64,000 nt of DNA from a virus (Duplodnaviria; Caudoviricetes), in the IMG/VR virus record IMGVR_UViG_3300025789_000018, one strand, 5' to 3'. Both the position numbers and the translations under genes were made by a program. A model generated the notes under the pieces. The model saw nothing but the letters and a program-made list of their open reading frames with translations. It made no database searches and was not told the DNA's origin. Shown here in pieces: positions 2,854-46,993 of this stretch (its first letter is position 1; the number at the start of each line of letters is the position of its first letter).

Positions 2854-3448
2854 TTTGTTTCCTTAAATGCTTTGCTAGATTCCCCAGATCCCATTCACGG
2901 CGGCAGCACACACAACAGGCTTTCTTTCCTTGTAAGTGTTTCGTGCCATTGGGCTGTTTTTTAAGATTATACTTACCGCGTTTCTTTCCTAATTTTGCTA
3001 ACCGCATCTTTTCTTTAGTTTCATCTGACGCCTTGACAACACCGACTAAACCTTTATTCCAGGCTTTTTGACCCATATGACCTAAAGAATTGTTGATTCT
3101 ATGTTCCGTCGATTGCGGACCTATCTTTCTACCTTTAGTTTTTATACTCATGGCGGCATAATCTCTAAAAGCAGACGTATCTCCACCACTTCCATTTTCT
3201 TCAATAAAATTAGCCCAGTTAGGAGAATTAACCACATCCCATAATTTGGAATAGTATAACCCTTGTTCTTTTATTTCTAATATATCATCAGATTGAAATA
3301 GAATCTCTGTCTCAATATCTTTACCATATTTGTTCAGTTCTCTTTTCCATCTCTTCCCTGAACCCAGGTATTCGAACGGATTTTGTTCTGTCTTACCAAG
3401 ATATTTAAGTCCAGTAACTTTATGCGTTTTAACATATAGTGTAATCAT
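2843..3448 (-). CDS. Free-standing GIY-YIG homing endonuclease (Seg-like) with NUMOD3 repeats, inserted in nrdA
   Basis: LYVKTHKVTGLKYLGK...YLGSG N-terminal GIY-YIG module; SDETKEKMRLAKLGK and KAWNKG NUMOD3-like motifs; C-terminal Cys/His finger. Confidence 0.88.
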   Translation of the reverse strand: MITLYVKTHKVTGLKYLGKTEQNPFEYLGSGKRWKRELNKYGKDIETEILFQSDDILEIKEQGLYYSKLWDVVNSPNWANFIEENGSGGDTSAFRDYAAMSIKTKGRKIGPQSTEHRINNSLGHMGQKAWNKGLVGVVKASDETKEKMRLAKLGKKRGKYNLKKQPNGTKHLQGKKACCVCCRREWDLGNLAKHLRKQNGF

Positions 3449-4933: not shown

Positions 4934-5096
4934 CAGTAACCCTTCTGTATAATTTATCAACTTTTTGTTCTAGCTTATTTATTCTAGCTAGAAGGTGCGG
5001 AACACAACTATGAACCTGATACTCACCATCTTTGATCTCTTGGTTGCAGAGAGAACAACTTATTTTACTCTCTGTATAAATGAAGTCACGAATCAT
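4914..5096 (-). CDS. Small hypothetical protein with CxxC...HxC and coiled coil
   Basis: 60-aa ORF overlapping thyX stop and nrdA start; CSLCNQ...HSC. Confidence 0.6.
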   Translation of the reverse strand: MIRDFIYTESKISCSLCNQEIKDGEYQVHSCVPHLLARINKLEQKVDKLYRRVTDDDFCD

Positions 5097-5772
5097 TCTT
5101 CAATGCCTCAATAATAGCAGGGAAGCGTTCACCAATGATTTCCCAGCACTGTTCTGCTACGATACGATGTTCCTTCTGTGTTGCTTTGTCCATGCGAATC
5201 TGACAGTAGTGAACCCAAGAGCGAAGCGAACCAGACATAATAAGCACAGATTCCATCATACCCTCCGGCAGTACTCCTCTTGCAACTTCCTTAGCAACAC
5301 CATTTTCGATTGCCCATTTATAGGATTTCAATGCTGCCCTTTTGACAATATCTTGCGCATCGTCCCATAATGCTTCCAGATAAATATCATCTACATCAAC
5401 ACTATTCTGACGGTTCTTTGGATCCTGCAAACGCGCTTCACGAGTAACGAACTTCAAGTCCTTAGTGGGATCAGCATAACGCTGGCTATACTCTTGAAAC
5501 GAGAACGAACGATGACGAAGAATCTGTCGGGCAATGTCGCGTGTGGTCTTAATCTCCATTGAGATATGGACCATTTCAAGGGGTGACCAATGCTGATTTG
5601 TGATCAGATACTTGAGCAGCTTTGGTGCAGTCTGTGTGTTGTTCTGGTTTGATGGATTCGATACACGGGCACACCATGCCACTAGTTCGGATGCATCTGT
5701 ACAACCAGTATACTCATAATCAGGCTGAGTAATGCCTACAAGATTAACACTGCTCATAATCATCACTTTCAT
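5086..5772 (-). CDS. thyX: Flavin-dependent thymidylate synthase
   Basis: ARVS, HWSPLEM, RQILRHRSFSFQEYSQRYA ThyX signature, AREVL-like AKEVARGVLP, TQKEHR. True start may be a few codons downstream. Confidence 0.96.
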   Translation of the reverse strand: MKVMIMSSVNLVGITQPDYEYTGCTDASELVAWCARVSNPSNQNNTQTAPKLLKYLITNQHWSPLEMVHISMEIKTTRDIARQILRHRSFSFQEYSQRYADPTKDLKFVTREARLQDPKNRQNSVDVDDIYLEALWDDAQDIVKRAALKSYKWAIENGVAKEVARGVLPEGMMESVLIMSGSLRSWVHYCQIRMDKATQKEHRIVAEQCWEIIGERFPAIIEALKNDS

Positions 5773-6073: not shown

Positions 6074-6434
6074 TTAACTCCTTAATCATAGCAATTGCGT
6101 TTTCATATAGTTCTACATCTTCTTTTAGGTGACGGACTTCCCATTCCTCTTCTTTAGTCATCGGGATTGCACCCCAAGAGCCATCATCCTGAAGTCCAGT
6201 ACGGCGCTCAAGACACATTATTGTATCTTTCTTGAGCATTACATGACCGTCAATACGAGAAACTAAGTTATTGACAGGGTCTTTCAACCACTCATGTAAT
6301 CTGTTGAGTTCACCTGCAATTTCTTCCGCAGTTGGCTTTTTATCTGTCAAGCCAAGTTCATAGGCCGTGGTCACACCTATACGAGAGATATTATTATCTT
6401 CACGGTACTGCTTCAACTTTTCAATTTCACTCAT
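6060..6434 (-). CDS. Hypothetical protein
   Basis: 124-aa ORF tightly coupled to neighbours. Confidence 0.7.
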   Translation of the reverse strand: MSEIEKLKQYREDNNISRIGVTTAYELGLTDKKPTAEEIAGELNRLHEWLKDPVNNLVSRIDGHVMLKKDTIMCLERRTGLQDDGSWGAIPMTKEEEWEVRHLKEDVELYENAIAMIKELNEHD

Positions 6435-6819
6435 AAAAAGAATCCAATGTTGATAATGTAAGTTGCAGATGATATGGCTTCTTTTGTCGGATCATCTCAT
6501 CAATCATATTTCGAGTACCGTTAGACTTACCATCCCAGATAATGACTGCCGCATCTGCATATTCTGCCATCGCTTTATTTCTAGCAGCGCCGGCTCTCTT
6601 TCCGTATTTATTCCAATCTGCAGGCATTGATGTTACAGGAATACTTCTAGTTGTAGCCCATTGTTCACCAAGTTGATCTACACCAATTGCCGTACCGCTT
6701 ACAAGTTCAGTTATAAAGAAACCGCATGAATTGATAGCCTTTAGAACAAGTTCATAGTCATCAAAGATTGATTTGGCTTCAGGATCTTTATATCTGTTAC
6801 CTGCAACAATAACTTTCAT
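6427..6819 (-). CDS. SLOG-superfamily protein (YspA/DUF2493-like)
   Basis: MKVIVAGNR...LVSGTAIGVDQLGEQWA...ADWNKYGKRAGAARNKAMAEYADAAVIIWDGKSNGTRNMI. Start reassigned to ATG 6819. Confidence 0.85.
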   Translation of the reverse strand: MKVIVAGNRYKDPEAKSIFDDYELVLKAINSCGFFITELVSGTAIGVDQLGEQWATTRSIPVTSMPADWNKYGKRAGAARNKAMAEYADAAVIIWDGKSNGTRNMIDEMIRQKKPYHLQLTLSTLDSFYE

Positions 6820-6820
6820 A

Positions 6821-7345
6821 TCAATCTGCCTTTGCTGGTGTAAAGTCTGTATCAAGTGGTTCGATGTGTGTCTTGGTAAAGACAATAGGAACCGAAGGTA
6901 GTTCTTCTGGTACAGCAGTATTACCATAGTCATAACTGACTGTAATATGTGGATTAAAGTCTGGATAGTCGTGAGTAGCACCAAATTGTGCTCTAATAGA
7001 ATTATGATGTTCTACAAGCTCTGGACAATCAATCAAAGCAACCAGACAGTTCTTGAAGATTTCCCACTTGGATATTGTACCGGTCAGTGGCAGATCAAGC
7101 TTATAGTCCTTAACATCAGGAACACCCTTACGACTATAAATGATTGTGGTGTGATACTGCTTGGGATCAGTTGCATTGGGAATATTATGTGTGGCAACCC
7201 AAGCAGCTAGATCTTTCTGAGTTTTAGTAGATACATTAGCACACATGTAAGTGCCACCAGCATGATTCTTCACTTTTAACTTCTCCAAGAAAAGCATACG
7301 TTTACGAAATGTCATCATATAATGTGTTTTATTCTTTATTTCCAC
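6821..7345 (-). CDS. acb1: Anti-CBASS nuclease Acb1 (T4 gp57B-like 2H phosphoesterase)
   Basis: Two HxT motifs in Acb1 context: YHTTIIYSR and ATHDYPDFNPHITVSY; GTYM at N-terminus. Real start is probably one of the ATGs near 7315. Confidence 0.85.
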   Translation of the reverse strand: MEIKNKTHYMMTFRKRMLFLEKLKVKNHAGGTYMCANVSTKTQKDLAAWVATHNIPNATDPKQYHTTIIYSRKGVPDVKDYKLDLPLTGTISKWEIFKNCLVALIDCPELVEHHNSIRAQFGATHDYPDFNPHITVSYDYGNTAVPEELPSVPIVFTKTHIEPLDTDFTPAKAD

Positions 7346-18268: not shown

Positions 18269-18297
18269 ATTATAAACTAACTGTCAATAAAAGTCAA
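18269..18297 (-). promoter_or_regulatory. Sigma70-type promoter
   Basis: TTGACT-N17-TATAAT upstream of the glycosylase gene. Confidence 0.8.
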
Positions 18298-18841
18298 CTA
18301 TCTCGTCAGCTATACCGTATTTGACAGCTTCTTTAGCTGACAACCAACGATCTTCAGGAGGAAGAAGATATTCACGAACTTCTTTTTCTGTCAGTCCTGT
18401 ACACTTTTTATAATGTTCAAGAATTCTAACACTGACCAAATTAAATTCTTTCATCTTAGCAAACAGCTCATGCTCTTTATCCCAAGCAAATCCTGTATAC
18501 TGGTGGCTAAGAATTGATGTGTTTCTTGTAATAAATCTTTTACCCTTGGCACCAGCCATAAACGTAAGCAAACCACAACTAGCAATTAGCCCAAGACCAT
18601 ATGTATGAATAGGAACCCTAGAACCTTTGATAGTATCAATCAAAGCAAATGCACTAGGAACCTCACCGCCTGGAGAATTAATTAGTAGCTTAATTTCCTT
18701 TGGTCTTTTTGGAGCTAGATTGCGCTCAAGAATAAACTTAATTAGTTCTCCAGTAGAAGACGAGGTAAAGTCGCTATTGAACAAATAATAATTATGCCGT
18801 TCTAATGATGGAATTTCGTTGTTCTTGGTTTCTATATTCAT
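18284..18841 (-). CDS. clpP: ClpP-family serine protease
   Basis: INSPGG, GLIASCG (catalytic S), LSHQ (H), EDRWLSAKEAVKYGIADEI. Confidence 0.92.
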   Translation of the reverse strand: MNIETKNNEIPSLERHNYYLFNSDFTSSSTGELIKFILERNLAPKRPKEIKLLINSPGGEVPSAFALIDTIKGSRVPIHTYGLGLIASCGLLTFMAGAKGKRFITRNTSILSHQYTGFAWDKEHELFAKMKEFNLVSVRILEHYKKCTGLTEKEVREYLLPPEDRWLSAKEAVKYGIADEIVDFY

Positions 18842-22631: not shown

Positions 22632-25130
22632 TTAATCATTGAAAAAATCTTCTAGAGTGTTAACGTATTCAGTTTTCCACCCAATTGCATTGCTAATTAT
22701 TCGCAACGGGTCGAGAAAGGCTTTGTTAAATTGAGTTTCGTAGTCGATGTATTTGTCCAAGTCCAATGACTTTGGCAAATTATTAACCACAGATATTACG
22801 TTTTCTTTTAGAGTATTGGGCGTAGTCATGTAACAGAACTTAATCTTTTCACCTTCCTGAACGCCTGGAAATTTACTATCCAATCCCTTTTCTTTAAGGA
22901 AATGATTATAAACTAGAGCGCCTCTGACATGAATCGGAGTCGATAGTCTATAGATGGTGGATGGACTGGAAAACTTAGCAAGATTATTGCAGCCCCGAGG
23001 AAAGGCAATTTCTTCAAAGGGCAAAGTTTCAAACTCATCTTTGAATTGTTCAATAAATTCGACCAGCTGATCCTCTGTTCCTTCCATCATAATCCTCAGA
23101 GCTTGCTTAATCTTTTCTCTGCAAGAAGAAGGAGTTGATGATTTAACAGCTTCAATACCCATCATCTTTAGCTTAGGTGCAGGATACCGGATTCCTTCAC
23201 TATCCCACACGTTAAGAATATACCGCTTCTTGGCAGTCCAGATGCCCTTGTCTGCAATAGCTTCACGCTTCATAGAAAGAAACGAGTTATATGCTTTAGT
23301 ATACACAGCAAAAGCATCAAGAGTTTTTGCGATATAAGGCTCTAGCTTTTCCTTACAAATTTTATCAACAATGTTGATCTTTTGCTCAAGAGTTTTGCCA
23401 TCAGCAATTTTATCGACAAGTTTCCCCAGTTTAACGTAGTTGGAATCGGTATCTACAGCAATAACATAATCTTCATCTTTAGTGCCAAGTATCTTATTCA
23501 GATACAGGTTCATATTTGTTTCTACATATCTAATGGCAAGCTGGCCAGATAGGGTAATTGCTTCAGCAAAAGCCAAACTATACCACCGACAATAAGCATT
23601 TCCAATAGCGCCATAAAGAGAGTTGAGCTGAATTTTACGAGCCATCTGCATGTTGTTGTATCTAGCGATAGCATTCTTGAGTTCCTTTGTGGGATTCTTT
23701 TGGTATTCTCTTTCAGCCTCAAACATCTTATTCTTATATGCCTTACGGTCTTTCATCATCTTTTCGACAATCTCAGGGAAAATTCCCTTTTTAGATTTGT
23801 CCCAGAAAGAACCGTTGGCTGCAAGAGTATAGTTTTTCTCAGTCAGTTCCTTATCATATTTAGCCAAAGCATTGTTATAAAGTTGGTCATCAACACTCCA
23901 AAACCCATCAATTTTTCCAACATAGGTTTCCGGCGATAGATTATACTGAACAATCAGAGAAGGGTACAGCGAGGTAACGTCAAACGACACAACCCATTCA
24001 TGCATACCTACCTGCGGATCTTTAACGAAAGCGCCAGCATATTGATCACCTTTGCTGGTAATCTTATTCTGAGGAATGACCAGCTTTTTGTCCATCATGT
24101 AGTTATGAATAATAACGTCCCAAAGACGCACAGAAGTGAATACGTCTTCAAGGTTGATCTTAGCGTCATAAGCAATAGTAAACGCTTGATCCATAAGATT
24201 CAAACGCTCATCCAACTTATCAACAAGAATAACGTCATGAATGTTATATTCAATAAACTTCTGATAGTCATTCAAGAAGAAGTCATGCATGTTATCATAT
24301 TCAGAATAGTCTAGCTTATTCTCACCAATCTCAACGTAGGCGATGTGATCCAGCCGATACGATTCCTGCTGCGTATAGGTAAATTTCTTATACAGCTGCT
24401 GATAATCCATGATAACAATACCCATAGGATTATAGGTTTGCTGCTCCTTACCAAAGATTTCAACCTTAGATTCCAAAAGAATCTTCCAAGGCGAAAGACG
24501 TTTAGCGAAGTCGTGACCAAGAACATTCGTGATACGGTTTACCAGATATGGAATATCGAAAAACTCAATGTTCCATCCAGTAATGACATCGATGTCAAAT
24601 TCTTCCCAACAATCAAGGAATTTGAGAAGCAGCTCTTCTTCATCACGACAGTTATAATAAACTGCGCCTGTATCCTTTACATCAAATTCTCCGCATCCAA
24701 AGACACGGATTTTGTTACCCTTCTTCAAGGTAATAGCTGTAACTTCTCGGTCAGCTGCACGAATATCAGGGAACCCACCATCGGAATTAACTTCGATGTC
24801 AACAGTTGCAACGTTCATACGCTCTTTGTCGTATCGAACTTCACCAGGATATTCATCATTAATGAACGCATAGACAAACTTATCAATACCATAAATGGGA
24901 AAGTTCGACAAGTCGTCATACTTCTTTAGAAACTCTTTGCCTTCCTGAAGGTTTTCGAAATCATATTTGGCTACAGGATTTCCATCTAGAGTATGATACT
25001 CCGACTCTTCTTTGCATGGAACAAACAAATATGGCTTATACTGTACCTTATGGTGTTCGCGCTTTGCACCATTCCAACCTCTAACAAAGATGTAATTTCC
25101 GCGCTGTATAGCGGACGTGTAAAATCGCAT
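22632..25130 (-). CDS. gp43: Family B DNA polymerase (T4 gp43-like)
   Basis: Exo DIE and GWNIEFFD; Pol SFDVTSLYPS, KIQLNSLYG, AVDTDS; C-terminal clamp peptide TLEDFFND. Confidence 0.98.
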   Translation of the reverse strand: MRFYTSAIQRGNYIFVRGWNGAKREHHKVQYKPYLFVPCKEESEYHTLDGNPVAKYDFENLQEGKEFLKKYDDLSNFPIYGIDKFVYAFINDEYPGEVRYDKERMNVATVDIEVNSDGGFPDIRAADREVTAITLKKGNKIRVFGCGEFDVKDTGAVYYNCRDEEELLLKFLDCWEEFDIDVITGWNIEFFDIPYLVNRITNVLGHDFAKRLSPWKILLESKVEIFGKEQQTYNPMGIVIMDYQQLYKKFTYTQQESYRLDHIAYVEIGENKLDYSEYDNMHDFFLNDYQKFIEYNIHDVILVDKLDERLNLMDQAFTIAYDAKINLEDVFTSVRLWDVIIHNYMMDKKLVIPQNKITSKGDQYAGAFVKDPQVGMHEWVVSFDVTSLYPSLIVQYNLSPETYVGKIDGFWSVDDQLYNNALAKYDKELTEKNYTLAANGSFWDKSKKGIFPEIVEKMMKDRKAYKNKMFEAEREYQKNPTKELKNAIARYNNMQMARKIQLNSLYGAIGNAYCRWYSLAFAEAITLSGQLAIRYVETNMNLYLNKILGTKDEDYVIAVDTDSNYVKLGKLVDKIADGKTLEQKINIVDKICKEKLEPYIAKTLDAFAVYTKAYNSFLSMKREAIADKGIWTAKKRYILNVWDSEGIRYPAPKLKMMGIEAVKSSTPSSCREKIKQALRIMMEGTEDQLVEFIEQFKDEFETLPFEEIAFPRGCNNLAKFSSPSTIYRLSTPIHVRGALVYNHFLKEKGLDSKFPGVQEGEKIKFCYMTTPNTLKENVISVVNNLPKSLDLDKYIDYETQFNKAFLDPLRIISNAIGWKTEYVNTLEDFFND

Positions 25131-26363: not shown

Positions 26364-26753
26364 TCACCTTTGTTCTTGTTTTGCTTTCAATAGTGCTATT
26401 TGCTGTTCAGTCAGAATAGATAGAGCAGCTTCAGCCTTCGGTTTAGTATAACCGTAAGTAAGCATAACAATATCTAAATTACTCAAACCCTTTTCTTTCT
26501 TATACCATTGGGTTTTCGCTCTTTTCCGACTTCTCACACTATTTATAAGATAGTCAAACTGGAGACGATTATCGAGTTTATGATACAGATTCATGACATT
26601 TGCATCATGTACTGTATCAATATAGTGCGATAATGCTTTATTTACAATATATGGATTGTAATCCTTTTCTGCTTGTTCCGGAGATTCACTATTCTTTATG
26701 ATATTCTTTTTACCTGAAGAAATATCAAACACATAATCAAAAGGATTACTCAT
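26364..26753 (-). CDS. gp62: Clamp loader small subunit (T4 gp62-like)
   Basis: YNPYIVNKALS...QFDYLINSVRSRKR...EAALSILTEQQ; position between gp44 and regA. Confidence 0.92.
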   Translation of the reverse strand: MSNPFDYVFDISSGKKNIIKNSESPEQAEKDYNPYIVNKALSHYIDTVHDANVMNLYHKLDNRLQFDYLINSVRSRKRAKTQWYKKEKGLSNLDIVMLTYGYTKPKAEAALSILTEQQIALLKAKQEQR

Positions 26754-27688
26754 TTGAACGAACACTGCAGCATAACATCAGTCAGAAAAGCGACTGTGTT
26801 AATTTCAGGATTAGCAACAAAGGCATGCTTGAACTGATAGTCAGCAGCAACAAGAATGAAGTTAGCTACTGAATCAGTTTCAAGATAGTCCGAACAAGTG
26901 TCATAAAGCATACGAAGCAAGGAAGCAAAGTCCAGATCAGAGTTCTGAGCAACCCAGCGCCGCATCTTATTGAAGTCCTTTTCTTTCAAATAACTAACGA
27001 TAGTTTTGAAAGACTCAGTATTAAAGTTGGAAAGAATACCTGTGTCAATCTTACCAGTAGCCGAATACTTCTGCAGTTCGTTAATGATCTTACGAAAGTC
27101 AGGAAAGTGCAGGCTTACAAGTTCAGCAACTGCAGCTTTATCGTATTCAATTTCTTCTTTGTTTAGAACATCAAGAATACGCTTGAAGAAATCAATACAA
27201 ATCTGTTCCTTATCTTTCTTTTGAATCTTAAATTCAACAGTCGAACAACGCGAACGCAATGGCTCAATCAGCTTATTCTTATAATTACAGGTGAGGATGA
27301 ACCCACAATTTGACGAAAATTCTTCAATGAAGTTACGAAGTGCAGGCTGAACAGAGTCAGCAGTCAAATAGTCAGCTTCGTCTAGGATAACGTACTTACG
27401 GCGACCTGTGAAAGAAACAGTCGAAGCAAAGTCACGAATATAAGTTCTCAGAGTGTCAATACGACGACCTTCATCCGAGCCATTGATTACAATATAATCA
27501 GCATCAAGTTCTTTGAGCATAGCCTTGGCTACAGTCGTTTTACCTGTTCCTGGAGGACCAGAAAGCAACAGATTAGGGATTTCGCCCTTTTCTACAAACT
27601 GCTTGAAGGTATTTTTGAGACTAGTGGGAAGAATACAATCATCAATTTTTACAGGGCGGTACTTTTCCGTCCAGAGAAACTCGTCCAT
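26750..27688 (-). CDS. gp44: Clamp loader large subunit (T4 gp44-like AAA+)
   Basis: LWTEKYRP, GPPGTGKTT, DEAD, LRSRC, HFPDFR; start at ATG 27688 behind GGAG. Confidence 0.97.
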   Translation of the reverse strand: MDEFLWTEKYRPVKIDDCILPTSLKNTFKQFVEKGEIPNLLLSGPPGTGKTTVAKAMLKELDADYIVINGSDEGRRIDTLRTYIRDFASTVSFTGRRKYVILDEADYLTADSVQPALRNFIEEFSSNCGFILTCNYKNKLIEPLRSRCSTVEFKIQKKDKEQICIDFFKRILDVLNKEEIEYDKAAVAELVSLHFPDFRKIINELQKYSATGKIDTGILSNFNTESFKTIVSYLKEKDFNKMRRWVAQNSDLDFASLLRMLYDTCSDYLETDSVANFILVAADYQFKHAFVANPEINTVAFLTDVMLQCSFK

Positions 27689-27700
27689 AATAATCTCCAT

Positions 27701-27778: not shown

Positions 27779-28435
27779 TTAAGCCTTGCGAATTTCCGTC
27801 GCAATCCAATACTGACGAGCATCATTATCAAAAAATGCCAGTCCCTTAGAAGAAACCGTAACGGCATAGTCAAGAGGCTGAACCTTCAGATTGTCAGCCT
27901 TAAACACAACACGAAACTCAGAGTCAGTTTCCCCAAGATCGATCTTAAAGGTATCGCTGCCGCCCCGCTTGGCCACATCTTCTGCGCTAACAGTAACTCG
28001 ACCATCTTCTCCCATGATTACAATTTCAGGAACCTGAAGAATAGAAGCAGCACGATGAATCTTAGTAATTGCTTCAGACGAGAGACGGAAGGCAGAATCC
28101 TGCGAAGGAAGCACAAGATCTTTCTTAGGAGGAACTACAATAGTGTCCTCTGCAGCATAGAAAATTGTAGTAACGTTCTTGTTCTTGTCCTTAATGATAA
28201 CTCGATCATTCTTGAAATCGCAATCAGGCTCATCCATGATGCTAAGTGCACCAAGGAATTTCGAAAGATTGGCAAGAGCCAGATTGTTGGGGAAATTATC
28301 CTCAACACTAGTCTTGGCTACGATAGTCTTTGACGTCGAAACAGTCTTGATAACATTACCCGCCTGAATAGCAATAGACGGGTTAATGCTAGAAAACTCC
28401 TTAAGAACACTTACAGTTGCATCACTTAGTTTCAT
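27779..28435 (-). CDS. gp45: Sliding clamp (T4 gp45-like)
   Basis: MKLSDATVSVLKEFSSINPSI...LSKFLGAL...; synteny 45-44-62-regA. Confidence 0.95.
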   Translation of the reverse strand: MKLSDATVSVLKEFSSINPSIAIQAGNVIKTVSTSKTIVAKTSVEDNFPNNLALANLSKFLGALSIMDEPDCDFKNDRVIIKDKNKNVTTIFYAAEDTIVVPPKKDLVLPSQDSAFRLSSEAITKIHRAASILQVPEIVIMGEDGRVTVSAEDVAKRGGSDTFKIDLGETDSEFRVVFKADNLKVQPLDYAVTVSSKGLAFFDNDARQYWIATEIRKA

Positions 28436-30478: not shown

Positions 30479-31027
30479 TCAATTATTAGCATCATGTATA
30501 ACAGTATTTATATAACTCACAATGGTATTTTGCTCATCATACGTATTATTTTCTAGGTGTTCTATGATAAACAGCAGATTAAGATTACTCAAAATATTAG
30601 CAACCTTAGTTTCTCTACCTCGCAACCAGGTTTCATCTTGGTTGCTGCCTCGACTTTCATATCTCAATTCTCTTTCTTTCTTTTGAGTAGAAAGATAAAT
30701 TATAGAAAGATCGAAGTTATCGTTACAATGCTCTAAGAAAGAGTTGTTGAATAGCCTATCGCCTTCAAACAAAACAATAGAATTGTCAGGAATAGAAGAT
30801 AGAAATTTTATAGCTTCTGGCTGAACCGCCATACTCATTCTATCAGTTCCAGCAAACACCTGATCATCTTCATATTTACCTAGAACATATAGATTATCTT
30901 TCTGATGGTAAGGAACCAATTTGAAATCATCTTTGAACTCATCAATTTTATATTGATCAATTATCTTTCTCATAAGAGTAGATTTGCCAGCTCCAGGCTC
31001 TCCACCAATTGCAATAATCTTAACCAT
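30479..31027 (-). CDS. P-loop kinase (type associated with DNA-hypermodification clusters)
   Basis: Walker A GGEPGAGKST, FAGTDRMS, Walker B LFEGDRL, lid R..RGS.Q. Confidence 0.8.
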   Translation of the reverse strand: MVKIIAIGGEPGAGKSTLMRKIIDQYKIDEFKDDFKLVPYHQKDNLYVLGKYEDDQVFAGTDRMSMAVQPEAIKFLSSIPDNSIVLFEGDRLFNNSFLEHCNDNFDLSIIYLSTQKKERELRYESRGSNQDETWLRGRETKVANILSNLNLLFIIEHLENNTYDEQNTIVSYINTVIHDANN

Positions 31028-32024
31028 AGAACATCTCCAATCCTTGTTTTACTTCTCCTTCATCAGAGAACATCCAATTCAGCTTTTCTATTTTACCTGT
31101 ATTAAGAAAAGAAGTAAACTTATTTTTATCAATCTTATTAGTAAGCAGTCTGTTATCTAGGGACTCTTGGCGAGCTTGCCAAAGAACATTCCACTCAATA
31201 CCAGGCCAGTTATCTTCTTCTAGTTGAAATATTTCTTCAGCTTGCCTATCCAAATAATATCCCAAATACCTGCCATGTTTTTCTCTAAAGATTTTCTTAA
31301 AAGAACAAAGGCAAGTTTCCATAGTATAGTAGTTAGCTTCTGATGCTAGATGCGGAAATCTAGTTTTGATTTCAACAAGAATATCTTTTGCTTCTGCTTC
31401 TAAATATGAATATTCTTTTTGTGTCAACTTAGTATCAATCCAATCTGATCGATCAAGCGCCAGCAAAAAGCCATTACGGTGAGAACGACTGCCAGAATAG
31501 TCAGAAAGCATAAGGCTGGTTGGTTCAAGAATAAGACCTGCAGTGCTATGTAAAGACTGCATGTAAAACCAAGTAGTGTATCTTCCAAACTTATGAAACT
31601 CTTTGTTTACAACATTCCAAACATTGTCAAAATTCTGAGATTCATTATCCCCATAATAATTCTCTAGAACTTCTTTTTGAGAAGAGTTTCCTACAAACTT
31701 TTGATAGGACTCAAACATAGAAGGCAAATGCCCCTTGTTGTATTTGGTATCAGTTTGATAACGGAGTCTTTTATAATTTGCAGTGTTCCATTGACTGATT
31801 CTGTCTACAGTTGCAAGCTCGTAGTCGGGAAATTCATTCTTAAGGACCCACGAAGTAGGAAGATAATATGTGTTGGCATATAGCCAGCAAAGCCATACTC
31901 TCTCTTCGCTATTATGCTCATACCTGTTATTAAGATAATTCATCATCCAAATGGCAGGATCGCAATCTTTATACTCTAAAGACCACGCATACCATCGGAT
32001 AAATCTTTCTTTATTATCAAGCAT
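31020..32024 (-). CDS. Amino acid:DNA transferase-like protein (aGPT-Pplase2/AADT, HhH-glycosylase-like fold)
   Basis: KFGRYTTWFYMQ hairpin motif, GSRSHRNG, METCLCSFKK, GRYLGYY; coupled to the P-loop kinase. Confidence 0.72.
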   Translation of the reverse strand: MLDNKERFIRWYAWSLEYKDCDPAIWMMNYLNNRYEHNSEERVWLCWLYANTYYLPTSWVLKNEFPDYELATVDRISQWNTANYKRLRYQTDTKYNKGHLPSMFESYQKFVGNSSQKEVLENYYGDNESQNFDNVWNVVNKEFHKFGRYTTWFYMQSLHSTAGLILEPTSLMLSDYSGSRSHRNGFLLALDRSDWIDTKLTQKEYSYLEAEAKDILVEIKTRFPHLASEANYYTMETCLCSFKKIFREKHGRYLGYYLDRQAEEIFQLEEDNWPGIEWNVLWQARQESLDNRLLTNKIDKNKFTSFLNTGKIEKLNWMFSDEGEVKQGLEMFYG

Positions 32025-32571
32025 TCATGTAGTCTGCAAAAAGGTCATTTTTGATTGCTTCCTGCGCATAGATAATCAGATTTTTGCGTTCTTCATTGGA
32101 GAGCTTATCAACCAAAATAGTAGCATTGACATATTCTCCATCCTTACCGCCCGACGCTTCTTTCCACTTGAACTTGTACCCAAAATGCTTTTGCATTTCG
32201 TTATGAAATAGATTTTCCATGAAAGTGGTATTTTCCTCGCTGCAATAAAGAACACGAACAAAACAACTATCGGGATTTAGATTTTGGCGAATATAAGTGC
32301 CTGCGCCATGAGAATTTGAGTTAGTTTTTGAATTTGCAGTCTGGCGAATCTTATATGTTCTATCATGAATATTAGAACTCTTGCCAATATATCCAATATG
32401 AGGGCTTACAAGATCATCGCCGATAAGCTCAATATCTTCACCATCAGCCACCTGATAAATCCCAGTAGAACCGTACTGAGAATCTAGACTGCGCTGAACG
32501 TTGTTGGAAGAAGGCAATTCAGAAATTTTTCTCCACTCAGAAATATGCGTAATTTTACTCTTATCAATCAT
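32017..32571 (-). CDS. GIY-YIG-like nuclease
   Basis: GIYQV...GYIGKS...DR...HG...FMENLF; no NUMOD3 tail. Confidence 0.6.
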   Translation of the reverse strand: MIDKSKITHISEWRKISELPSSNNVQRSLDSQYGSTGIYQVADGEDIELIGDDLVSPHIGYIGKSSNIHDRTYKIRQTANSKTNSNSHGAGTYIRQNLNPDSCFVRVLYCSEENTTFMENLFHNEMQKHFGYKFKWKEASGGKDGEYVNATILVDKLSNEERKNLIIYAQEAIKNDLFADYMNA

Positions 32572-32607
32572 TTAATAATTCTCCATAATGTAGGTAGTAG
32601 TAACAGC

Positions 32608-32636
32608 AGCTTATATCATTTTTCACTGCAAGTCAA
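32608..32636 (-). promoter_or_regulatory. Possible internal sigma70 promoter upstream of GIY-YIG/AADT/kinase genes
   Basis: TTGACT(32631-36)-N17-TAAGCT(32608-13). Confidence 0.5.
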
Positions 32637-33135
32637 TAGCTGATACAACGCCGCCCTTTCTTCCACTATTTACTGCAGAAGAGATGACATCATCATAATC
32701 ATAGATACCATCAGTGTATCGGTCTCCCCCTATTTTAAAAATACTTAAAGAAGAGCCAGACTTCTGTTTTCCCCAAAACTTGAATCCACACTTTTTGTAG
32801 AATGGAACAGCATCAGGTTCAGCAGAAACTCTAAAATATACAGCATCCATTTTCATAGCTTTCAGTAAAGCGTAATCAGTTAGCACTCTACCCACACCCT
32901 TTCCTCTGTGAGAATGGAATGTGTGAAGTAATTGAAGATTTGCCACCTTTGGATCACGTTTGCTGACTGTAACAATTATTGCTCCAAGCAACTCGTCGCC
33001 ATCCCATGCTCCGGTGCAATGTGCCCACTGATCTTGCATGTTGGCTTTAGCTAAGAATGTCTTAGCAAACGAATCTTCTTTTTTGTTAGTGATGGCTGCG
33101 GTAAATTGTTCTTTGCTACAATTAAGTAACTTCAT
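32623..33135 (-). CDS. GNAT acetyltransferase
   Basis: LQLLHTFHSHRGKGVGRVL motif A, AVPFYKKCGF motif B; start reassigned to ATG 33135 (MKLLNC), overlapping the amidoligase stop. Confidence 0.85.
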   Translation of the reverse strand: MKLLNCSKEQFTAAITNKKEDSFAKTFLAKANMQDQWAHCTGAWDGDELLGAIIVTVSKRDPKVANLQLLHTFHSHRGKGVGRVLTDYALLKAMKMDAVYFRVSAEPDAVPFYKKCGFKFWGKQKSGSSLSIFKIGGDRYTDGIYDYDDVISSAVNSGRKGGVVSAIDLQ

Positions 33136-33994
33136 GGAACTCGCGCTTTTTTTCTCCACGCTCTTTATCATATTTGGTATCAACCCATCCTGAATATTCA
33201 TTAGCGTTCCAAATAAATGGAGGAAACTTCAGTTCATATTTATCAAGAATATCTTCCACACTATCACCACCATTCAGAGCAGCATCAATGAAAGCCTCAG
33301 CAAATATGAACTGAGATTCAAGTTCTTCTCTTTTAGTAGTTGATCGGAAACAGCGGAACTCAATAGTTCCTGTGTGCTTCATGCAATATGTGTTGATTGC
33401 ATATCGGAAAGGCCGACCCATAGAAATACCATCTTTACCTGCAGCATGCAATTTGATAAAATGGTTAAAGTCTGTGGCCATGTTAATGATGTTGTCACAC
33501 ATATATTCAGGCATAACACGACCGCCATCATATTTTAGATATGTTTTGGCATTCTTGAATCCCTTCATATCTACACGATCTTCAAACTGATAACAAGCAG
33601 CAATGGTAGCTTCTTGATTCTTCTTGATATAAGAAACCAGTCTCTTTAGTGCATCAAGATCATCTTTAAGGCCAGGAACAAATACATGAAGATGGCCATG
33701 ATTAACACAAGAAGATGATGGAGTATTACCGTGATCTTCAAATATCTTTTTAATTTCTAGAATACGATCAACCTGTTCTTGCCAAGTTTTAGTAGGCTTG
33801 GTGTTTATTTCTCCACCCATAGGAGGTTCTAGACCTAGCGGATCACACGCAATATACTTGTAATCGCCGTGGATATTCACAATATCAGTTTCAGCGTATT
33901 CCCACTTTCCTAAGTTTTCTGGAATACTAATAGAGCGATCAATATCACCCCATTCAATTTCATATCCCCAAGTATAGTCTTTAGTGTTATACAT
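33122..33994 (-). CDS. Amidoligase (COOH-NH2 ligase, glutamine-synthetase-like fold)
   Basis: WGYEIEW, GGEINTKP, NHGHLHV, RYAIN, GTIEFRCF; start at ATG 33994. Confidence 0.82.
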   Translation of the reverse strand: MYNTKDYTWGYEIEWGDIDRSISIPENLGKWEYAETDIVNIHGDYKYIACDPLGLEPPMGGEINTKPTKTWQEQVDRILEIKKIFEDHGNTPSSSCVNHGHLHVFVPGLKDDLDALKRLVSYIKKNQEATIAACYQFEDRVDMKGFKNAKTYLKYDGGRVMPEYMCDNIINMATDFNHFIKLHAAGKDGISMGRPFRYAINTYCMKHTGTIEFRCFRSTTKREELESQFIFAEAFIDAALNGGDSVEDILDKYELKFPPFIWNANEYSGWVDTKYDKERGEKKREFHEVT

Positions 33995-34679
33995 GTTGTA
34001 AATCTTTCTTTCGTACAATATCAACTTCGTGTCGTTCTATCAAAAAACTAACATCGTTCATAAAGTATGTAACATAAGGTTTTGCTTCAGCAATTCCAGA
34101 AACTCCGGCACGATGTAAAATGTCTTTAGTCGATGCAAAAACAACACTCTTAGGCTTATATGAATAATACAAAGGACGCTTACCGTTTCTAAAAAAAGAT
34201 ACTTGTTTATTATACAAAGACAATACAGCACCAGAAATAGAAGCATCTTCCCAAATAAAAGGACTTTTACCTTCAGCCAAACTTTTTAGTAAGAGTTCAG
34301 AATCATTTTTAGTATTACACTTATATCCATAAAGCTCTTCCCATCGCTCAGGAAGTTCTTGAGATATGACACCATTATGGACTAACGAAATCTGAGAAGT
34401 TTCTAGAGGCTGATTATACAACAAGTCAGAAGTGGAATATCTGCAATGTCCAACAAAGCATATATTTCCATCTTCATTTACTAGTTGCTCAAACTCATAA
34501 GTTTCAGCAAATTCATCAGCAGGAAGAGCAGTTCGCTCTGTCCAAATTTGTCCATCTTTGATATATGAAAGACCTGTAGCGTGTTTACCTCTGATCCGAG
34601 ATTCAATAAAAATATTTCTGATAGTAGTAAAATCGGCTTCAGTTGGATCAGAAATATAAGCGCCGATAATACCACACAT
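33987..34679 (-). CDS. Class II (Ntn) glutamine amidotransferase, stand-alone
   Basis: N-terminal MCGIIG, RGKHATG, GHCRYST, NQP, VHNGVI, NDSE, RNGKRPL. Confidence 0.9.
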   Translation of the reverse strand: MCGIIGAYISDPTEADFTTIRNIFIESRIRGKHATGLSYIKDGQIWTERTALPADEFAETYEFEQLVNEDGNICFVGHCRYSTSDLLYNQPLETSQISLVHNGVISQELPERWEELYGYKCNTKNDSELLLKSLAEGKSPFIWEDASISGAVLSLYNKQVSFFRNGKRPLYYSYKPKSVVFASTKDILHRAGVSGIAEAKPYVTYFMNDVSFLIERHEVDIVRKKDLQHV

Positions 34680-36016
34680 TAAAAGAAACTTTCTAGAGAA
34701 CCTGCTGTACTCTTGTCATAAGGATCAGTCATACCGTGCGCAGCAAGGTAGTCAAACCATTCTTGCTCGTCCCACATACCAGGACTCACACCATTCCAAA
34801 GTTTACGCTGAAGGGGATGGTCTTTATTAAGTCTGCGGGAATCAACAAACTTCTTACGAAGCTGTTCATATTCCCAACTTCCAGGTTCAAGCATATCTTC
34901 ACGGAAGTATGCAACAATAGTCATACGATCAGGATTCTCGCCCCGAATTTCTGCATTACCATGGATAGCAGTATGGTTTGCCACAAGGAGAAGATCACCA
35001 GGCTCTAGTTTTACTGCTGCACGATATTCAGGGAGGATAAGTTCCGCGCCTTCCCAACCAGCACCAAGACCGGATAGGTTCGAGAATCCTGACGCAAGAT
35101 CGCCCGCATCGAGGTGCGCGGCGGTGCGGAAATTGTGATTCACTGTAAGAGTAGTGAATACAGTATCAGAAATCAAAAAGTTAGGATCAAGTTTATCTGC
35201 AGCTGCTCTTTGGTTGCCCCAACGCTGCGGAAGAAGTTGGCTGAAACAATGATTCAGCTTCTTCAAATACGGAAAGCTCTTTTCGAAATCCTGCGGATTC
35301 TTTTCAGTAAAAGCAGTTGCTCGCTTATAAGGAATTCTAGGATACCGAGAATAATATCCAGCAACGCCAGACATAACAGTTTGTGCGTAGTTAGTTTCCG
35401 AAATATAATTGTCAAGAATATACTTGGCTTCCGCTCGGCGAGTGTCTTCATGTTTATTGCTTAGACCCTCAACCCAACGATCAAACCATCCAAAATAAGG
35501 ATCATGATCTTTACAGACTTCACTGCGCAACCACACGCAACCACGAGTCTGATCAGGCTCTTTCTTTTGATGTTTAATCTTGATAGATTCTAGACTTTCA
35601 TCATCAAACACAGAAACGTTAGTTCTGGTGAGATATTCAAGAACATCAATCTGATAATTAGAAACCCACTCACGACCACCTCGACCAGAAGCAGAAAGCA
35701 TTTCACCGCGAGGGCCAGCAGCCATACCGCGATTCTGCGATTCAGAGGCAGCACCAATCAGACCTTCATAACAAAGGTAAAGTTCTTCTTGAGTAAAAAC
35801 GTTCTTACGAAATTTCAGGATAATATTATCTTCAGTCATGCTTCCATCAAGAGAAGGACCATAAACGTCAGTATCTTCTGTCAATAAGACATCATAATGG
35901 CTCTCATCAACAAAGCTGCCGATAAGATGATCGCTAGGAATCTTTTGATCAATATAAATTGTTTTTACTGACAAAGAAGTGCAAGGACGGTCGCAGTCTT
36001 TCACGCAGTCTTTCAT
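34679..36016 (-). CDS. TET/JBP-family 2OG-Fe(II) dioxygenase (5-methylpyrimidine oxygenase)
   Basis: SGVAGYYSRYPRIPYKRATAF, TVFTTLTVNHNFRTAAHLDAGD (HxD), AIHGN (distal H), RMTIVAYFRE (2OG-binding R); start at ATG 36016 behind GGAG. Confidence 0.88.
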   Translation of the reverse strand: MKDCVKDCDRPCTSLSVKTIYIDQKIPSDHLIGSFVDESHYDVLLTEDTDVYGPSLDGSMTEDNIILKFRKNVFTQEELYLCYEGLIGAASESQNRGMAAGPRGEMLSASGRGGREWVSNYQIDVLEYLTRTNVSVFDDESLESIKIKHQKKEPDQTRGCVWLRSEVCKDHDPYFGWFDRWVEGLSNKHEDTRRAEAKYILDNYISETNYAQTVMSGVAGYYSRYPRIPYKRATAFTEKNPQDFEKSFPYLKKLNHCFSQLLPQRWGNQRAAADKLDPNFLISDTVFTTLTVNHNFRTAAHLDAGDLASGFSNLSGLGAGWEGAELILPEYRAAVKLEPGDLLLVANHTAIHGNAEIRGENPDRMTIVAYFREDMLEPGSWEYEQLRKKFVDSRRLNKDHPLQRKLWNGVSPGMWDEQEWFDYLAAHGMTDPYDKSTAGSLESFF

Positions 36017-36041
36017 AATAATCTCCAAATAACGAGCAACA

Positions 36042-36070
36042 AGTATACTATAAAGTTACAAACTTGTCAA
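36042..36070 (-). promoter_or_regulatory. Strong sigma70-type promoter heading the DNA-modification operon
   Basis: TTGACA(36065-70)-N17-TATACT(36042-47). Confidence 0.8.
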
Positions 36071-36569
36071 CTGCTTTTCGCATACGCTGCAGTTTTTTCC
36101 AATCTTTCTTGGCCCGTTCTTTATCTAACGACTCTGCACGGTCAAGATGGCATTTACCAATAAGATGATCGTATTCATGAAGGAATACTCTTGCCGTCAT
36201 ACCATCAAATGTGTGTGTTTTGATATATCCATCAGGAAAAGCAAATCGCACTTTGATCATTCTAGGACGCTTGATCTTAACAATCAACTTAGGATATGAT
36301 AGACAGCTTTCTTCCATTTTAATTGTCTCAGAAGAAACCTCAACAATCTTAGGATTAAACGCCACAATAGGAGTTTCTCCAATCATTGCAAAAATCTGAT
36401 AAGGATAACCAACCTGTGGAGCAGCAAGACCAAGACCACGATGTTCTTTCATCTTTTTGATCAGCTCAATGGAAAATTCCATGGGGTCAAAAGGAGGATT
36501 ATCAAAGTTAAACCTTTGAGCCGGAGTCTTTAAAATAGGATCATTATGAGAAACAAGCTCAAGATTCAT
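36048..36569 (-). CDS. def: Peptide deformylase
   Basis: GLGLAAPQVG, EESCLS, LHEYDHL. Confidence 0.93.
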   Translation of the reverse strand: MNLELVSHNDPILKTPAQRFNFDNPPFDPMEFSIELIKKMKEHRGLGLAAPQVGYPYQIFAMIGETPIVAFNPKIVEVSSETIKMEESCLSYPKLIVKIKRPRMIKVRFAFPDGYIKTHTFDGMTARVFLHEYDHLIGKCHLDRAESLDKERAKKDWKKLQRMRKAVDKFVTL

Positions 36570-36946
36570 TACTTAACTCCCAAAACTTTTCTAAGATTAG
36601 GACGTTCGTAATTTGGACCCTTTTTAATCTTGCCATCTTCACGATAAACAGGCTTTCCATCTTCGCCCAGTTTGGTCATATTACTCCGATGCACTTCAGC
36701 ATAACACTTATCAAGATCAATACCAAAAGCAAGACCTGCTCCGTAAGTGACGTACAAAATATCAGTGAGAGCATCGGCAACCTCAACGATGTCTTTATCT
36801 TTGATAGCATCTTTTAGCTCCTCTAGTTCTTCACGAATTAATTCGTAACGAAGTTCTACAACATCATTGCTAGGAAACTTTGGCTTGGTTGCAATCTTTT
36901 GGCCAAACTTTTCCATGAACTCTTTACCTTTTTCAAAATTAGTCAT
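36569..36946 (-). CDS. MazG-like nucleotide pyrophosphohydrolase (DR2231/dUTPase-like)
   Basis: LIREELEEL...EVADALTDILYV.YG...EVHRSNMTK...REDGKIKKGPNY. Confidence 0.88.
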   Translation of the reverse strand: MTNFEKGKEFMEKFGQKIATKPKFPSNDVVELRYELIREELEELKDAIKDKDIVEVADALTDILYVTYGAGLAFGIDLDKCYAEVHRSNMTKLGEDGKPVYREDGKIKKGPNYERPNLRKVLGVK

Positions 36947-39945: not shown

Positions 39946-40146
39946 TCAATATTTGATTCTGCGCTTCATTTGTTTTAGTTCTAACTCTTTGTCAAAACTA
40001 TCAACATTTCGCTTGCAGAAATCAGCGATGTTTTCAAGCGAAGTTCTATAATTAAATCTAATGTGTTCCGGCGCGCTTTTGTCGTTCAGCTTACTGATCA
40101 TATCAGCAACTGGCGCTGGAATAATAATATCTTTAGCCATCTTCAT
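39946..40146 (-). CDS. Small hypothetical protein
   Basis: 66 aa between gp55 and gp47. Confidence 0.7.
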   Translation of the reverse strand: MKMAKDIIIPAPVADMISKLNDKSAPEHIRFNYRTSLENIADFCKRNVDSFDKELELKQMKRRIKY

Positions 40147-40741
40147 TATCCTCTACAAATACATCTAACCCTTTTTTCTTTGGGGTTTTTTTGTTTTTGA
40201 GCTTTGTTTCATAATCAGAAACAAATTTGCCCATTCGTTCAGTATGATCTACTGTATGAGAAGATGACCCTTTTATAGCAGTTTTGCTTGTTTCACTATT
40301 AACAAACTCGGTCAGTTCATCCATGATATCCATATTCTCGAATATCTTGTATTTGACGTAAGTCTGTCTGTGCTCTTTAGCGATCCTATGCAAAAAGGCA
40401 TTATATATGATCATAGTGAAATAGGCAAATGGATTATTGCTTTTGTCAGGGTTAAAATTGTGCATGTATGCGATGCAATTTTCTATCCCGTCTCCAATCA
40501 TCTCCTCTTTATATGTATATGATATAAAGTTATGTTTGTATGATAATTTTGTGGCAATCTTTAAAATACAATCGCCAACATATTCTGGGATTCTGGGAAG
40601 CGGCTTATTGTTTTCTTTTGCATCACGATACTCATTGATATAATGAATCATATATCCGTAGAGCTTCTTGTTATCTACGTAATGCGGCTGACTTTTCTTT
40701 AGTGCTTTTTTTGACACCTTAATCACTTTTTCACTTGACAT
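40133..40741 (-). CDS. gp55: Late-transcription sigma factor (T4 gp55-like)
   Basis: HYVDNKKL, PRIPEYVGDCILKIA, NFISYTYKEEMIGDGIENC, NPFAYFT; C-terminal GLDVFVE. Confidence 0.96.
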   Translation of the reverse strand: MSSEKVIKVSKKALKKSQPHYVDNKKLYGYMIHYINEYRDAKENNKPLPRIPEYVGDCILKIATKLSYKHNFISYTYKEEMIGDGIENCIAYMHNFNPDKSNNPFAYFTMIIYNAFLHRIAKEHRQTYVKYKIFENMDIMDELTEFVNSETSKTAIKGSSSHTVDHTERMGKFVSDYETKLKNKKTPKKKGLDVFVEDNEDG

Positions 40742-46324: not shown

Positions 46325-46993
46325 TTATCTTTTGACCAATGAATTTACGAAATTCTCGAACATTCTGACCTTATTTTCTTGAATTTGTCTTGTGGACATT
46401 TTCTTAATTTCTGTTTTAACAGCTTCAACCTGTCTCCAAGAACCTTCAGCAATATCATACCACCATTCAGTACCTTCCATAATGCCCTTAACAAAAGCAT
46501 CAGGAGCTGATGGATCAGCAACAATATCAGCAGCAGTAGCAAGCATAAAGTCATTTTGAACTTCCATAATGCCATCTTTGTTTTGTTTTAGCGAACCCAT
46601 GCCTCTTGACGAAACACCAAGGTTAGCACCAGCATCAATAAGGTTTCTGGCAATGTTTCCCATAGGGGTCTCAAGAACTTGCGCTCTACCGATATAGTTA
46701 GGTCCATCTTTACGCAGTTCTTTGATCATGTGCGATACGCGATCTAGATTAATTGTAGGACCCGATGGGTGATTAAGTTCACCATAGGCTCTGTTTGATT
46801 CAATTAGAGATTTTGTGTAACGTGCAACTTCTCTATCCATTACTTCTTCTGGATACATTCTTCCGTTGCGATTTTTAATTGATGACTGAAGAAATACACC
46901 TTCAATGAAGTAATTCTTCTTACCGTTTTCGGTAGTCTCTTTAAGAGTTCTTACGTCTTCAATTTTTTCGCAAATTAGTAAAGCGCCGCTCAT
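46325..46993 (-). CDS. gp21: Prohead protease (T4 gp21-like)
   Basis: KNRNGRMYP, GELNHP, GVSSRGMG, DIVADPSAPDA. Confidence 0.97.
   Translation of the reverse strand: MSGALLICEKIEDVRTLKETTENGKKNYFIEGVFLQSSIKNRNGRMYPEEVMDREVARYTKSLIESNRAYGELNHPSGPTINLDRVSHMIKELRKDGPNYIGRAQVLETPMGNIARNLIDAGANLGVSSRGMGSLKQNKDGIMEVQNDFMLATAADIVADPSAPDAFVKGIMEGTEWWYDIAEGSWRQVEAVKTEIKKMSTRQIQENKVRMFENFVNSLVKR

Follow-up and report, generated by a model that had tools for sequence, protein, structure and literature searches.

The virus record IMGVR_UViG_3300025789_000018 of IMG/VR (Duplodnaviria; Caudoviricetes) carries a cluster of DNA base modification genes embedded among T4-type replication genes. Within the 64,000-nt stretch of this record that was analyzed (hereinafter, the window), which gene order identifies as part of a marine or soil T4-like myophage genome, two enzymes encoded in this cluster, a TET/JBP-type 5-methylpyrimidine dioxygenase (5mYOX) and an amino acid:DNA transferase, end in short peptides of the same form as the C-termini of DNA polymerase gp43 and late sigma factor gp55 of the same phage. 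The tails of the two enzymes are quite likely to be docking peptides for the sliding clamp gp45, and the enzymes probably work from the clamp on DNA that has just been replicated. The genes and tails on which this argument turns, all on the minus strand like every gene judged real in the window, are the following.

34679-36028, minus strand: TET/JBP-type 5mYOX, 449 aa (PF12851, 2.7e-22; phrog_24024, 9.8e-142)
34682-34699, minus strand: its C-terminal tail, S444-L-E-S-F-F449, a candidate gp45-docking peptide
31020-32024, minus strand: amino acid:DNA transferase (ADDT/AADT, formerly aGPT-Pplase), 334 aa (PF18724, 8.7e-20; phrog_3271, 1.5e-54)
31023-31043, minus strand: its C-terminal tail, G328-L-E-M-F-Y-G334, a candidate gp45-docking peptide
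22632-25130, minus strand: gp43 family-B DNA polymerase, 832 aa (phrog_262, PF00136, PF03104), with the tail T-L-E-D-F-F-N-D at 22635-22658
40133-40741, minus strand: gp55 late sigma factor, 202 aa (phrog_234, 2.1e-57)
27779-28435, minus strand: gp45 sliding clamp, 218 aa, the proposed docking partner (phrog_223, 1.8e-60)
26364-27700, minus strand: clamp loader, comprising gp44 (26750-27700; phrog_168, 8.1e-123) and gp62 (26364-26765; phrog_225, 8.7e-33)
6427-6819, minus strand: SLOG/YAcAr protein (PF10686, 6.2e-10), a fifth carrier of the motif, with the tail T-L-D-S-F-Y-E at 6430-6450

The dioxygenase ends in KSTAGSLESFF, where the motif stops on the last residue, and the transferase in VKQGLEMFYG, with one residue after the motif; gp43 ends in NTLEDFFND, and gp55 in KKGLDVFVEDNEDG (shorter form GLDVFVEDNEDG), that is, in G-L-D-V-F-V followed by the acidic EDNEDG (40136-40171). 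Set side by side, the four cores read SLESFF, GLEMFY, TLEDFF and GLDVFV and differ from the SLDFL[FY] of T4, in which gp43 ends in KASLDFLFG and gp55 in SPSLDFLYEAND (SLDFLYEAND). In T4 and RB69, the equivalent tails fit into a hydrophobic pocket, or an interface between subunits, of the gp45 trimer. The C-terminal peptides of T4 gp43 and gp55 are established clamp-binding epitopes (PMC2988020). The preliminary description of this DNA had listed the four C-termini, assigned the respective families and stated the role of the T4 peptides; the C-termini read exactly as claimed there, the family assignments hold and the statement on T4 is right.

The pattern [STG]L[DE]xF[FYV] occurs five times in the 84 minus-strand open reading frames (ORFs) of the window (20,540 aa), in all five cases within the last 14 residues. 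The looser pattern L[DE]xF[FYV] has a single internal occurrence, which translates into 0.04 expected occurrences at C-termini and a Poisson P of ~1e-9, a value that is indicative only given that the motif was defined post hoc, after the data had been seen. The pattern is far beyond chance. The fifth carrier, missed by the preliminary description, is the SLOG protein, which ends in LSTLDSFYE and is probably a 130-aa protein starting from M56 (6819), the listed 185-aa ORF (6427-6984) being over-extended at the 5' end. The SLOG tail is kept in close homologues (L070-L075, L097) and absent from distant SLOG proteins; because only close relatives keep it, this case is weaker than those of the dioxygenase and the transferase. 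No homologue of gp33, another expected tail carrier, was recognised with PHROGs among the small ORFs of the window. Compared with the PCNA-interacting protein (PIP) box of PCNA ligands (Q-x-x-[LIM]-x-x-[FY]-[FY]), the tails contain the LxxFF core and lack the conserved Q (alignments A2 and A3), so by sequence they resemble a PIP box without being one by definition.

Both enzymes are readily recognisable. The dioxygenase scores 79.2 bits with PF12851 (cut-off 34.9), and the triad of 2-oxoglutarate/Fe(II) enzymes, H305-x-D307...H356, together with R368, is invariant in alignment A2; the protein is probably a thymine dioxygenase. The transferase scores 71.9 bits with PF18724 (cut-off 26.2), and its gene adjoins one for a P-loop nucleotide kinase. 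The gp45 protein matches T4 gp45 (1czd, 3.2e-19) and RB69 gp45 (1b77/1b8h, 4.1e-19), and its gene lies ~2 kb from the modification cluster. In the AlphaFold2 model of the dioxygenase (mean predicted local distance difference test score, pLDDT, 78.6), residues 431-444 are coil and residues 445-448 a short helix, with a pLDDT of 58 for the last block; in the model of the transferase (mean pLDDT 83.7, predicted template modelling score 0.86), residues 310-334 are coil with pLDDT below 50. Thus, both tails are predicted to lie outside the folded domains, as low-confidence coil plus a one-turn helix, as in a short linear docking motif.

The preliminary description had proposed conservation of the tails in homologues from related phages as a check, and the tails are conserved: the key residues are invariant and the linkers vary. 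A search with the dioxygenase sequence retrieved 44 viral contigs, and the full-length homologues (41 viral contigs, 41-75% identity) all end in [STGND]L[ED]xFF plus 0-1 residue. In 23 of these homologues L445, F448 and F449 are invariant, and the preceding linker of 8-12 residues varies in length and sequence (A2). For the transferase, 17 homologues end in L[ED]xF[MLYF] plus 0-2 residues, and L329 and F332 are invariant in 14 aligned sequences with variable linkers (A3). Altogether, the tail is found on 85 of the 791 complete ORFs of the related loci (about one expected), and the carriers are the dioxygenase, ADDT, a TAGT glycosyltransferase (PF20691), a GT1-like protein, a GNAT acetyltransferase, gp43, gp55 and one unassigned 434-aa ORF (L036), with no other family represented; it never occurs on the homologues of the kinase (19 proteins), of the class II glutamine amidotransferase (GATase) or of a conserved 300-aa protein of the cluster in these loci. 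T4-like isolates with the tail include DLP_6 (dioxygenase ending in TLGDFFV) and C48C1 (SLEEFFV).

Homologous enzymes of phages without a T4-type clamp provide controls. Among the short TET proteins associated with ParB (HTVC112P-like contigs), none of the 35 complete proteins has the tail, no gp45 or gp43 was found in the 426 kb of these contigs, ParB is present in 29 of the 36 loci, and the transferases encoded on the same contigs are likewise tail-less. Nor is the tail present in the TET proteins of S-CBWM1 and of the small phages HTVC112P and P12024L, or in the transferase of mycobacteriophage Bane2; neither gp43 nor gp45 was matched in S-CBWM1 or Bane2. The tail is restricted to phages that encode gp45.

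The strongest evidence is the co-variation of the enzyme tails with the tail of the polymerase of the same phage, as follows.

DLP_6: polymerase ATLDSFFA; TET ATLGDFFV
Cygsa01: polymerase SVMDFFS; ADDT DLMGFFQ
Cba120 (Ackermannviridae): polymerase VNLLSMMGKKG; ADDT VNLMTLLKR; HMUD2 kinase VSLLGLLSKG
Vibrio phage D493: polymerase KARKLW; ADDT KTRKLW; HMUD2 kinase KTKKLW

Cygsa01, Cba120 and D493 all encode gp45 homologues. In a permutation test the match between enzyme and polymerase tails was significant across 10 phages (P = 9e-4), and across five lineages the true pairing ranked first of 120. The tail of Cba120 (given as NL[LM]x[LM][LM]) is present in four of the 219 ORFs of this phage, namely the polymerase, the kinase, ADDT and a 70-aa phrog_4789 protein, and the tail of D493 (given as K[KR]LW) in five of 215 ORFs, namely the polymerase, the kinase, ADDT, an HMUDK_hel protein and a 99-aa phrog_4789 protein. 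The same set of clients thus recurs with three unrelated tail codes, which points to a co-evolving common receptor. The two phrog_4789 proteins (L160:10731-10943 in Cba120, ending in KVNLLSLMSK, and L171:1591-1890 in D493, ending in KTKRLW) may be gp33-like clamp-dependent transcription cofactors or other clamp clients.

A prediction of the complex between the clamp and the tail, also proposed in the preliminary description, was made with three copies of gp45 (alignment A1) and residues 390-449 of the dioxygenase (A2). The scores were 0.55, 0.49 and 0.31, with a median of 0.49 compared to 0.04 for the best of three controls, so that the controls were passed, though weakly, and the outcome was rated as weak support; replacement of gp45 with an unrelated protein gave a score of 0.00. 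Of 80 solved complexes, 58 reached the mark, as did two of 110 mismatched pairs; scores of 0.60 or less that reached it came from seven of the 80 solved complexes and from both passing mismatches. The runs share at least 69% of the contacts, with a partner pLDDT of at least 40. Given that a similar complex has been solved (RB69 clamp with the polymerase peptide, 1B8H), the pass may reflect the memory of the model.

Taken together, the conservation of the tails, the clamp-less controls, the co-variation and the additional carrier enzymes support the proposal of the preliminary description that both enzymes are tethered to the clamp. The alternative that retains most credit, although we consider it unlikely, is that the tails dock on a shared partner other than gp45, such as the phage single-strand-binding protein, another component of the replisome or packaging machinery, or a host protein, the polymerase tail of these marine phages having a different or additional partner compared to T4. 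The data reveal a lineage-specific docking code common to the carriers, which by itself leaves the receptor unnamed, the D493 tail, with basic residues followed by LW, is unlike the T4 epitope, and the prediction with gp45 is weak. Against this stand the facts that the gp43 and gp55 tails have no known ligand in common except gp45 (PMC2988020), that all tailed phages encode gp45 whereas those without it are tail-less, that L-x-x-F-F resembles PCNA-type clamp peptides, and that the prediction score falls to 0.00 when gp45 is exchanged for an unrelated protein.

It is far less plausible that the tail marks its carriers for degradation or turnover and thereby sets when replication and modification proteins are abundant, for example, via the ClpP-like protease (18284-18841). 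Hydrophobic C-terminal tags are classic degrons and the phage does encode a ClpP-family protein; this gene, however, matches head-maturation protease families, the tails of the T4 counterparts are binding epitopes required for function (PMC2988020), and tails that differ wholly between lineages yet match the respective polymerases fit a co-evolving receptor better than a generic protease. Just as improbable is the possibility that the tail is an integral part of the enzyme (a lid, an oligomerisation element or an auto-inhibitory peptide) or a by-product of downstream translational signals. The ParB-dependent 5mYOXs require a C-terminal extension for activity (PMC13229309), and the codons of the transferase tail overlap translation signals of the kinase gene (Shine-Dalgarno sequence and start codon). 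Nevertheless, proteins of seven unrelated folds (TET, ADDT, TAGT, GT1, GNAT, polymerase and sigma factor) carry the tail in front of different downstream genes, the AlphaFold2 models leave it unpacked with low pLDDT, and homologues outside gp45-encoding phages manage without it. Chance resemblance of short C-terminal sequences, for which it can be said that the motif is short and was defined post hoc, is effectively refuted by the excess over expectation both in the window and among its relatives and by Cba120 and D493, which independently replicate the pattern with tails of other sequence.

Several observations weigh against clamp docking of the modification enzymes, in addition to the post hoc definition of the motif. 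The sole structural prediction is weak and is counted here as minor support. The G-L-E codons of the transferase tail also provide the kinase gene with its Shine-Dalgarno sequence and start codon, and nucleotide conservation at this site could partly be translational. The kinase, which also acts on DNA, is tail-less in this phage, though tailed in Cba120 and D493; a kinase-transferase complex is conceivable, the two genes overlapping at the transferase stop. The TET tail of Cr30 (GATLF) is only loosely similar to the polymerase tail of the same phage (DLSSLFD). Finally, the alpha- and beta-glucosyltransferases of T4 have no such tail. The T4 alpha-glucosyltransferase would be a close parallel, as a DNA-modifying enzyme of a T4-family phage that works from the clamp during replication, and differs from the enzymes described here in that neither it nor the beta-glucosyltransferase has the polymerase-type tail, in contrast to the conserved, co-varying motif observed here. 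The interaction of the alpha-glucosyltransferase with gp45 is an earlier claim (ref. 20 of bioRxiv 10.64898/2025.12.06.692756) that this 2025 preprint contests: pull-downs of the T4 glucosyltransferases with gp45, performed with C-terminally His-tagged enzymes, were negative in vitro and in vivo. Because these enzymes are tail-less and were not pulled down with gp45, clamp tethering is no general rule for the modification enzymes of the T4 family.

The modification cluster is located between the genes for gp45 and gp46. On the minus strand, the gene order starts with gp55, gp47, gp46, MazG and peptide deformylase, followed by the cluster (TET/JBP, GATase, the 300-aa protein, GNAT, a 184-aa ORF, the transferase and P-loop kinase 3) and then by a vWA protein, a phrog_1574 protein, gp45, gp44, gp62 and regA, after which come an endolysin-like gene, gp43, UvsX and gp41. 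No near-identical DNA match to the cluster was found among 50,697 phage records. Apart from the dioxygenase and the transferase, the cluster consists of the following genes.

33987-34679, minus strand: class II GATase, 230 aa (PF13522, 3.3e-13), no clamp tail
33122-34024, minus strand: conserved 300-aa protein without a Pfam or PHROG match, no tail
32623-33201, minus strand: GNAT acetyltransferase, 192 aa (PF13673, 3.9e-13), ends in AIDLQ, no clamp tail in this phage
32017-32571, minus strand: 184-aa ORF between GNAT and the transferase, with a weak T5orf172 (GIY-YIG-like) match
30479-31027, minus strand: P-loop nucleotide kinase 3, a candidate 5-hydroxymethyldeoxyuridine (5-hmdU) DNA kinase, 182 aa (PF18751, 4.3e-12), tail-less, with an 8-nt overlap between its start and the transferase stop

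From this gene content we infer a post-replicative thymidine hypermodification pathway that starts with the conversion of thymine (T) to 5-hydroxymethyluracil (5hmU). T, rather than 5-methylcytosine, appears to be the substrate because of the kinase, transferase and GATase neighbours, the presence of ThyX and the lack of a C5-methyltransferase among the annotated ORFs of the window; most phage 5mYOX pathways are likewise without a C5-methyltransferase (PMC13229309). Judging by the respective families, the dioxygenase would oxidise T in DNA to 5hmU, the P-loop kinase would phosphorylate 5hmU, the transferase would swap the phosphate for an amino acid, and GNAT, GATase and the 300-aa protein might tailor or supply the adduct. 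Under the proposed mechanism, the L-[DE]-x-F-[FY] tails, which follow disordered, fast-evolving linkers, would dock the dioxygenase and the transferase onto gp45 rings placed by the gp44/62 loader on replicating phage DNA, and the docked enzymes would slide with, or concentrate on, the new duplex, so that modification would be coupled to replication in time and place. The consequences would include higher local concentration and processivity, timing with replication, a preference for, or confinement to, new phage DNA over host DNA, and perhaps competition between the enzymes and gp43 or gp55. In relatives, such docking would also apply to glycosyltransferases and GNAT, and in other lineages to 5-hmdU kinases.

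The closest known counterparts are the epitopes of T4 and RB69 gp43, gp55 and gp33 (1B8H; PMC2988020), which are also short, hydrophobic and acidic motifs at the very end of the chain, preceded by a divergent, flexible linker, and the tail is interchangeable between proteins in T4 (PMC2988020). For the enzymes described here, the co-variation with the polymerase tail suggests indirectly that their tails might likewise be exchanged for that of gp43. The phage described here encodes gp45 and the gp44/62 loader, and the tails of its gp43 and gp55 have the same form as those of the enzymes. The differences are that the carriers here are base-modifying enzymes, that the consensus is L-[DE]-x-F-[FY], with a PIP-like LxxFF core, as opposed to S-L-D-F-L-[FY], and that binding is proposed here and known there. 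DNMT1, the binding of which to PCNA is mentioned in PMC11371216, is similarly a DNA-modifying enzyme that is recruited to a trimeric clamp via an LxxFF-type peptide, which couples modification to replication; its PIP box, however, is internal or N-terminal and contains the conserved Q, and the modification is methylation that serves epigenetic maintenance, as opposed to presumed anti-restriction. The toolbelt logic, whereby many unrelated enzymes share one short clamp-docking peptide, is familiar from the clients of the bacterial beta clamp, which is dimeric and recognises a different consensus. The bacterial motif is QL[SD]LF, and the clients include Pol II-V, MutS, ligase and Hda. We know of no base-hypermodification enzyme among these classical clients.

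The ParB-dependent T-dioxygenases (the 5mYOX176 class) are also linked to genes for a GATase, a P-loop kinase and a transferase, and for activity on double-stranded DNA they need a DNA-associated accessory protein, a ParB-like protein encoded by the adjacent gene (PMC13229309). They lack the polymerase-type tail; in the phage described here, conversely, there is no ParB relative and the candidate accessory protein is gp45. A tblastn search with the ParB of HTVC112P yielded no match in the window or in any of the 44 TET loci, so a ParB-dependent model does not hold for this phage. CTP-dependent DNA clamps belong to the ParB family. Some way short of an even chance, we would tentatively entertain a broader interpretation, namely that gp45 is the required DNA-loading activator of ParB-less phage T-dioxygenases and that, in no fewer than three lineages (marine/soil T4-like phages, Ackermannviridae and a Vibrio phage group), each with its own co-evolved tail code, the clamp serves as a post-replicative toolbelt on which whole pathways (dioxygenase, 5-hmdU kinases, amino acid:DNA transferases, glycosyltransferases and acetyltransferases) assemble, such that ParB-like proteins and gp45 would be convergent solutions to one problem. 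Some ParB-less clade C1 5mYOXs are inactive when expressed alone in E. coli (PMC13229309), and if this interpretation is true, dependence on gp45 would explain their inactivity.

Several additional features of the proteins and of their genomic neighborhood were observed. At its N-terminus (residues 1-225), the dioxygenase has ~200 conserved residues that the Pfam domain does not cover, with an invariant N-R-G-x-A-A-G; this region is missing from the short ParB-type TET proteins; in isolate genomes the gene is labeled 'SNF2 DNA repair protein', and this label looks wrong. The GATase has a conserved C-terminal motif of another kind, DLQ, which in 17 of 19 homologues (loci L007-L040) is followed by no more than three residues, an ending shared by no other six-frame ORF in the 44 related loci. 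The GNAT of the window likewise ends in AIDLQ, and DLQ may mediate docking to another pathway component. Several GNAT homologues (in L022, L030, L040 and L021) end in GLEDFF, GLEGFL or TLESFF, that is, the clamp-type tail was gained and lost within one enzyme family. The 300-aa protein has homologues in 18 loci (51-75% identity). None of the 44 related loci has an equivalent of the 184-aa ORF, which, for this reason, probably entered the cluster as a mobile or homing-endonuclease-type insertion.

Elsewhere in the window, ThyX thymidylate synthase (5086-5772) and peptide deformylase with MazG (36048-36946) are encoded near replication genes, and ThyX fits ordinary incorporation of T followed by post-replicative oxidation. 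The ClpP-like protease gene (18284-18841) is located among replication genes and is distinct from the T4-type prohead protease (46325-46993). The large subunit of ribonucleotide reductase is split into two ORFs, 3479-4960 (ATP-cone, all-alpha domain and barrel positions 1-222) and 1843-2853 (barrel positions 213-523), separated by a 201-aa ORF without a family match (2843-3448), which looks like genes-in-pieces made by mobile insertion.

Searches of the literature, mainly open-access, for the clamp or gp45 together with hypermodification, TET, aGPT-Pplase, 5-HMUDK or glycosyltransferases yielded no description of such tails, an absence that is not proof. What appears to be new is the class of clients, DNA hypermodification enzymes of several unrelated folds, along with the lineage-specific tail codes, whereas the docking principle is already known. 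Post-replicative hypermodification requires that thousands of phage bases are found and converted within minutes, and the rationale of its targeting and timing has been called 'a mystery', with a ParB activator invoked for one subclass (PMC13229309). A clamp-docking tail would be a concrete mechanism, under which the enzymes ride the rings left on newly replicated DNA. The comparison of the last eight residues of an enzyme with those of the polymerase gives a sequence rule that flags modification enzymes in genomes of uncultured T4-like phages, Ackermannviridae and their relatives. Heterologous assays of such enzymes may fail without gp45 and its loader; culturable phages with the relevant enzymes include Cba120 or ViI, DLP_6 and Cr30. 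If clamp docking is correct, the modification enzymes, the polymerase and the late sigma factor would all compete for the same clamp sites, which would link modification, replication and late transcription in these phages.

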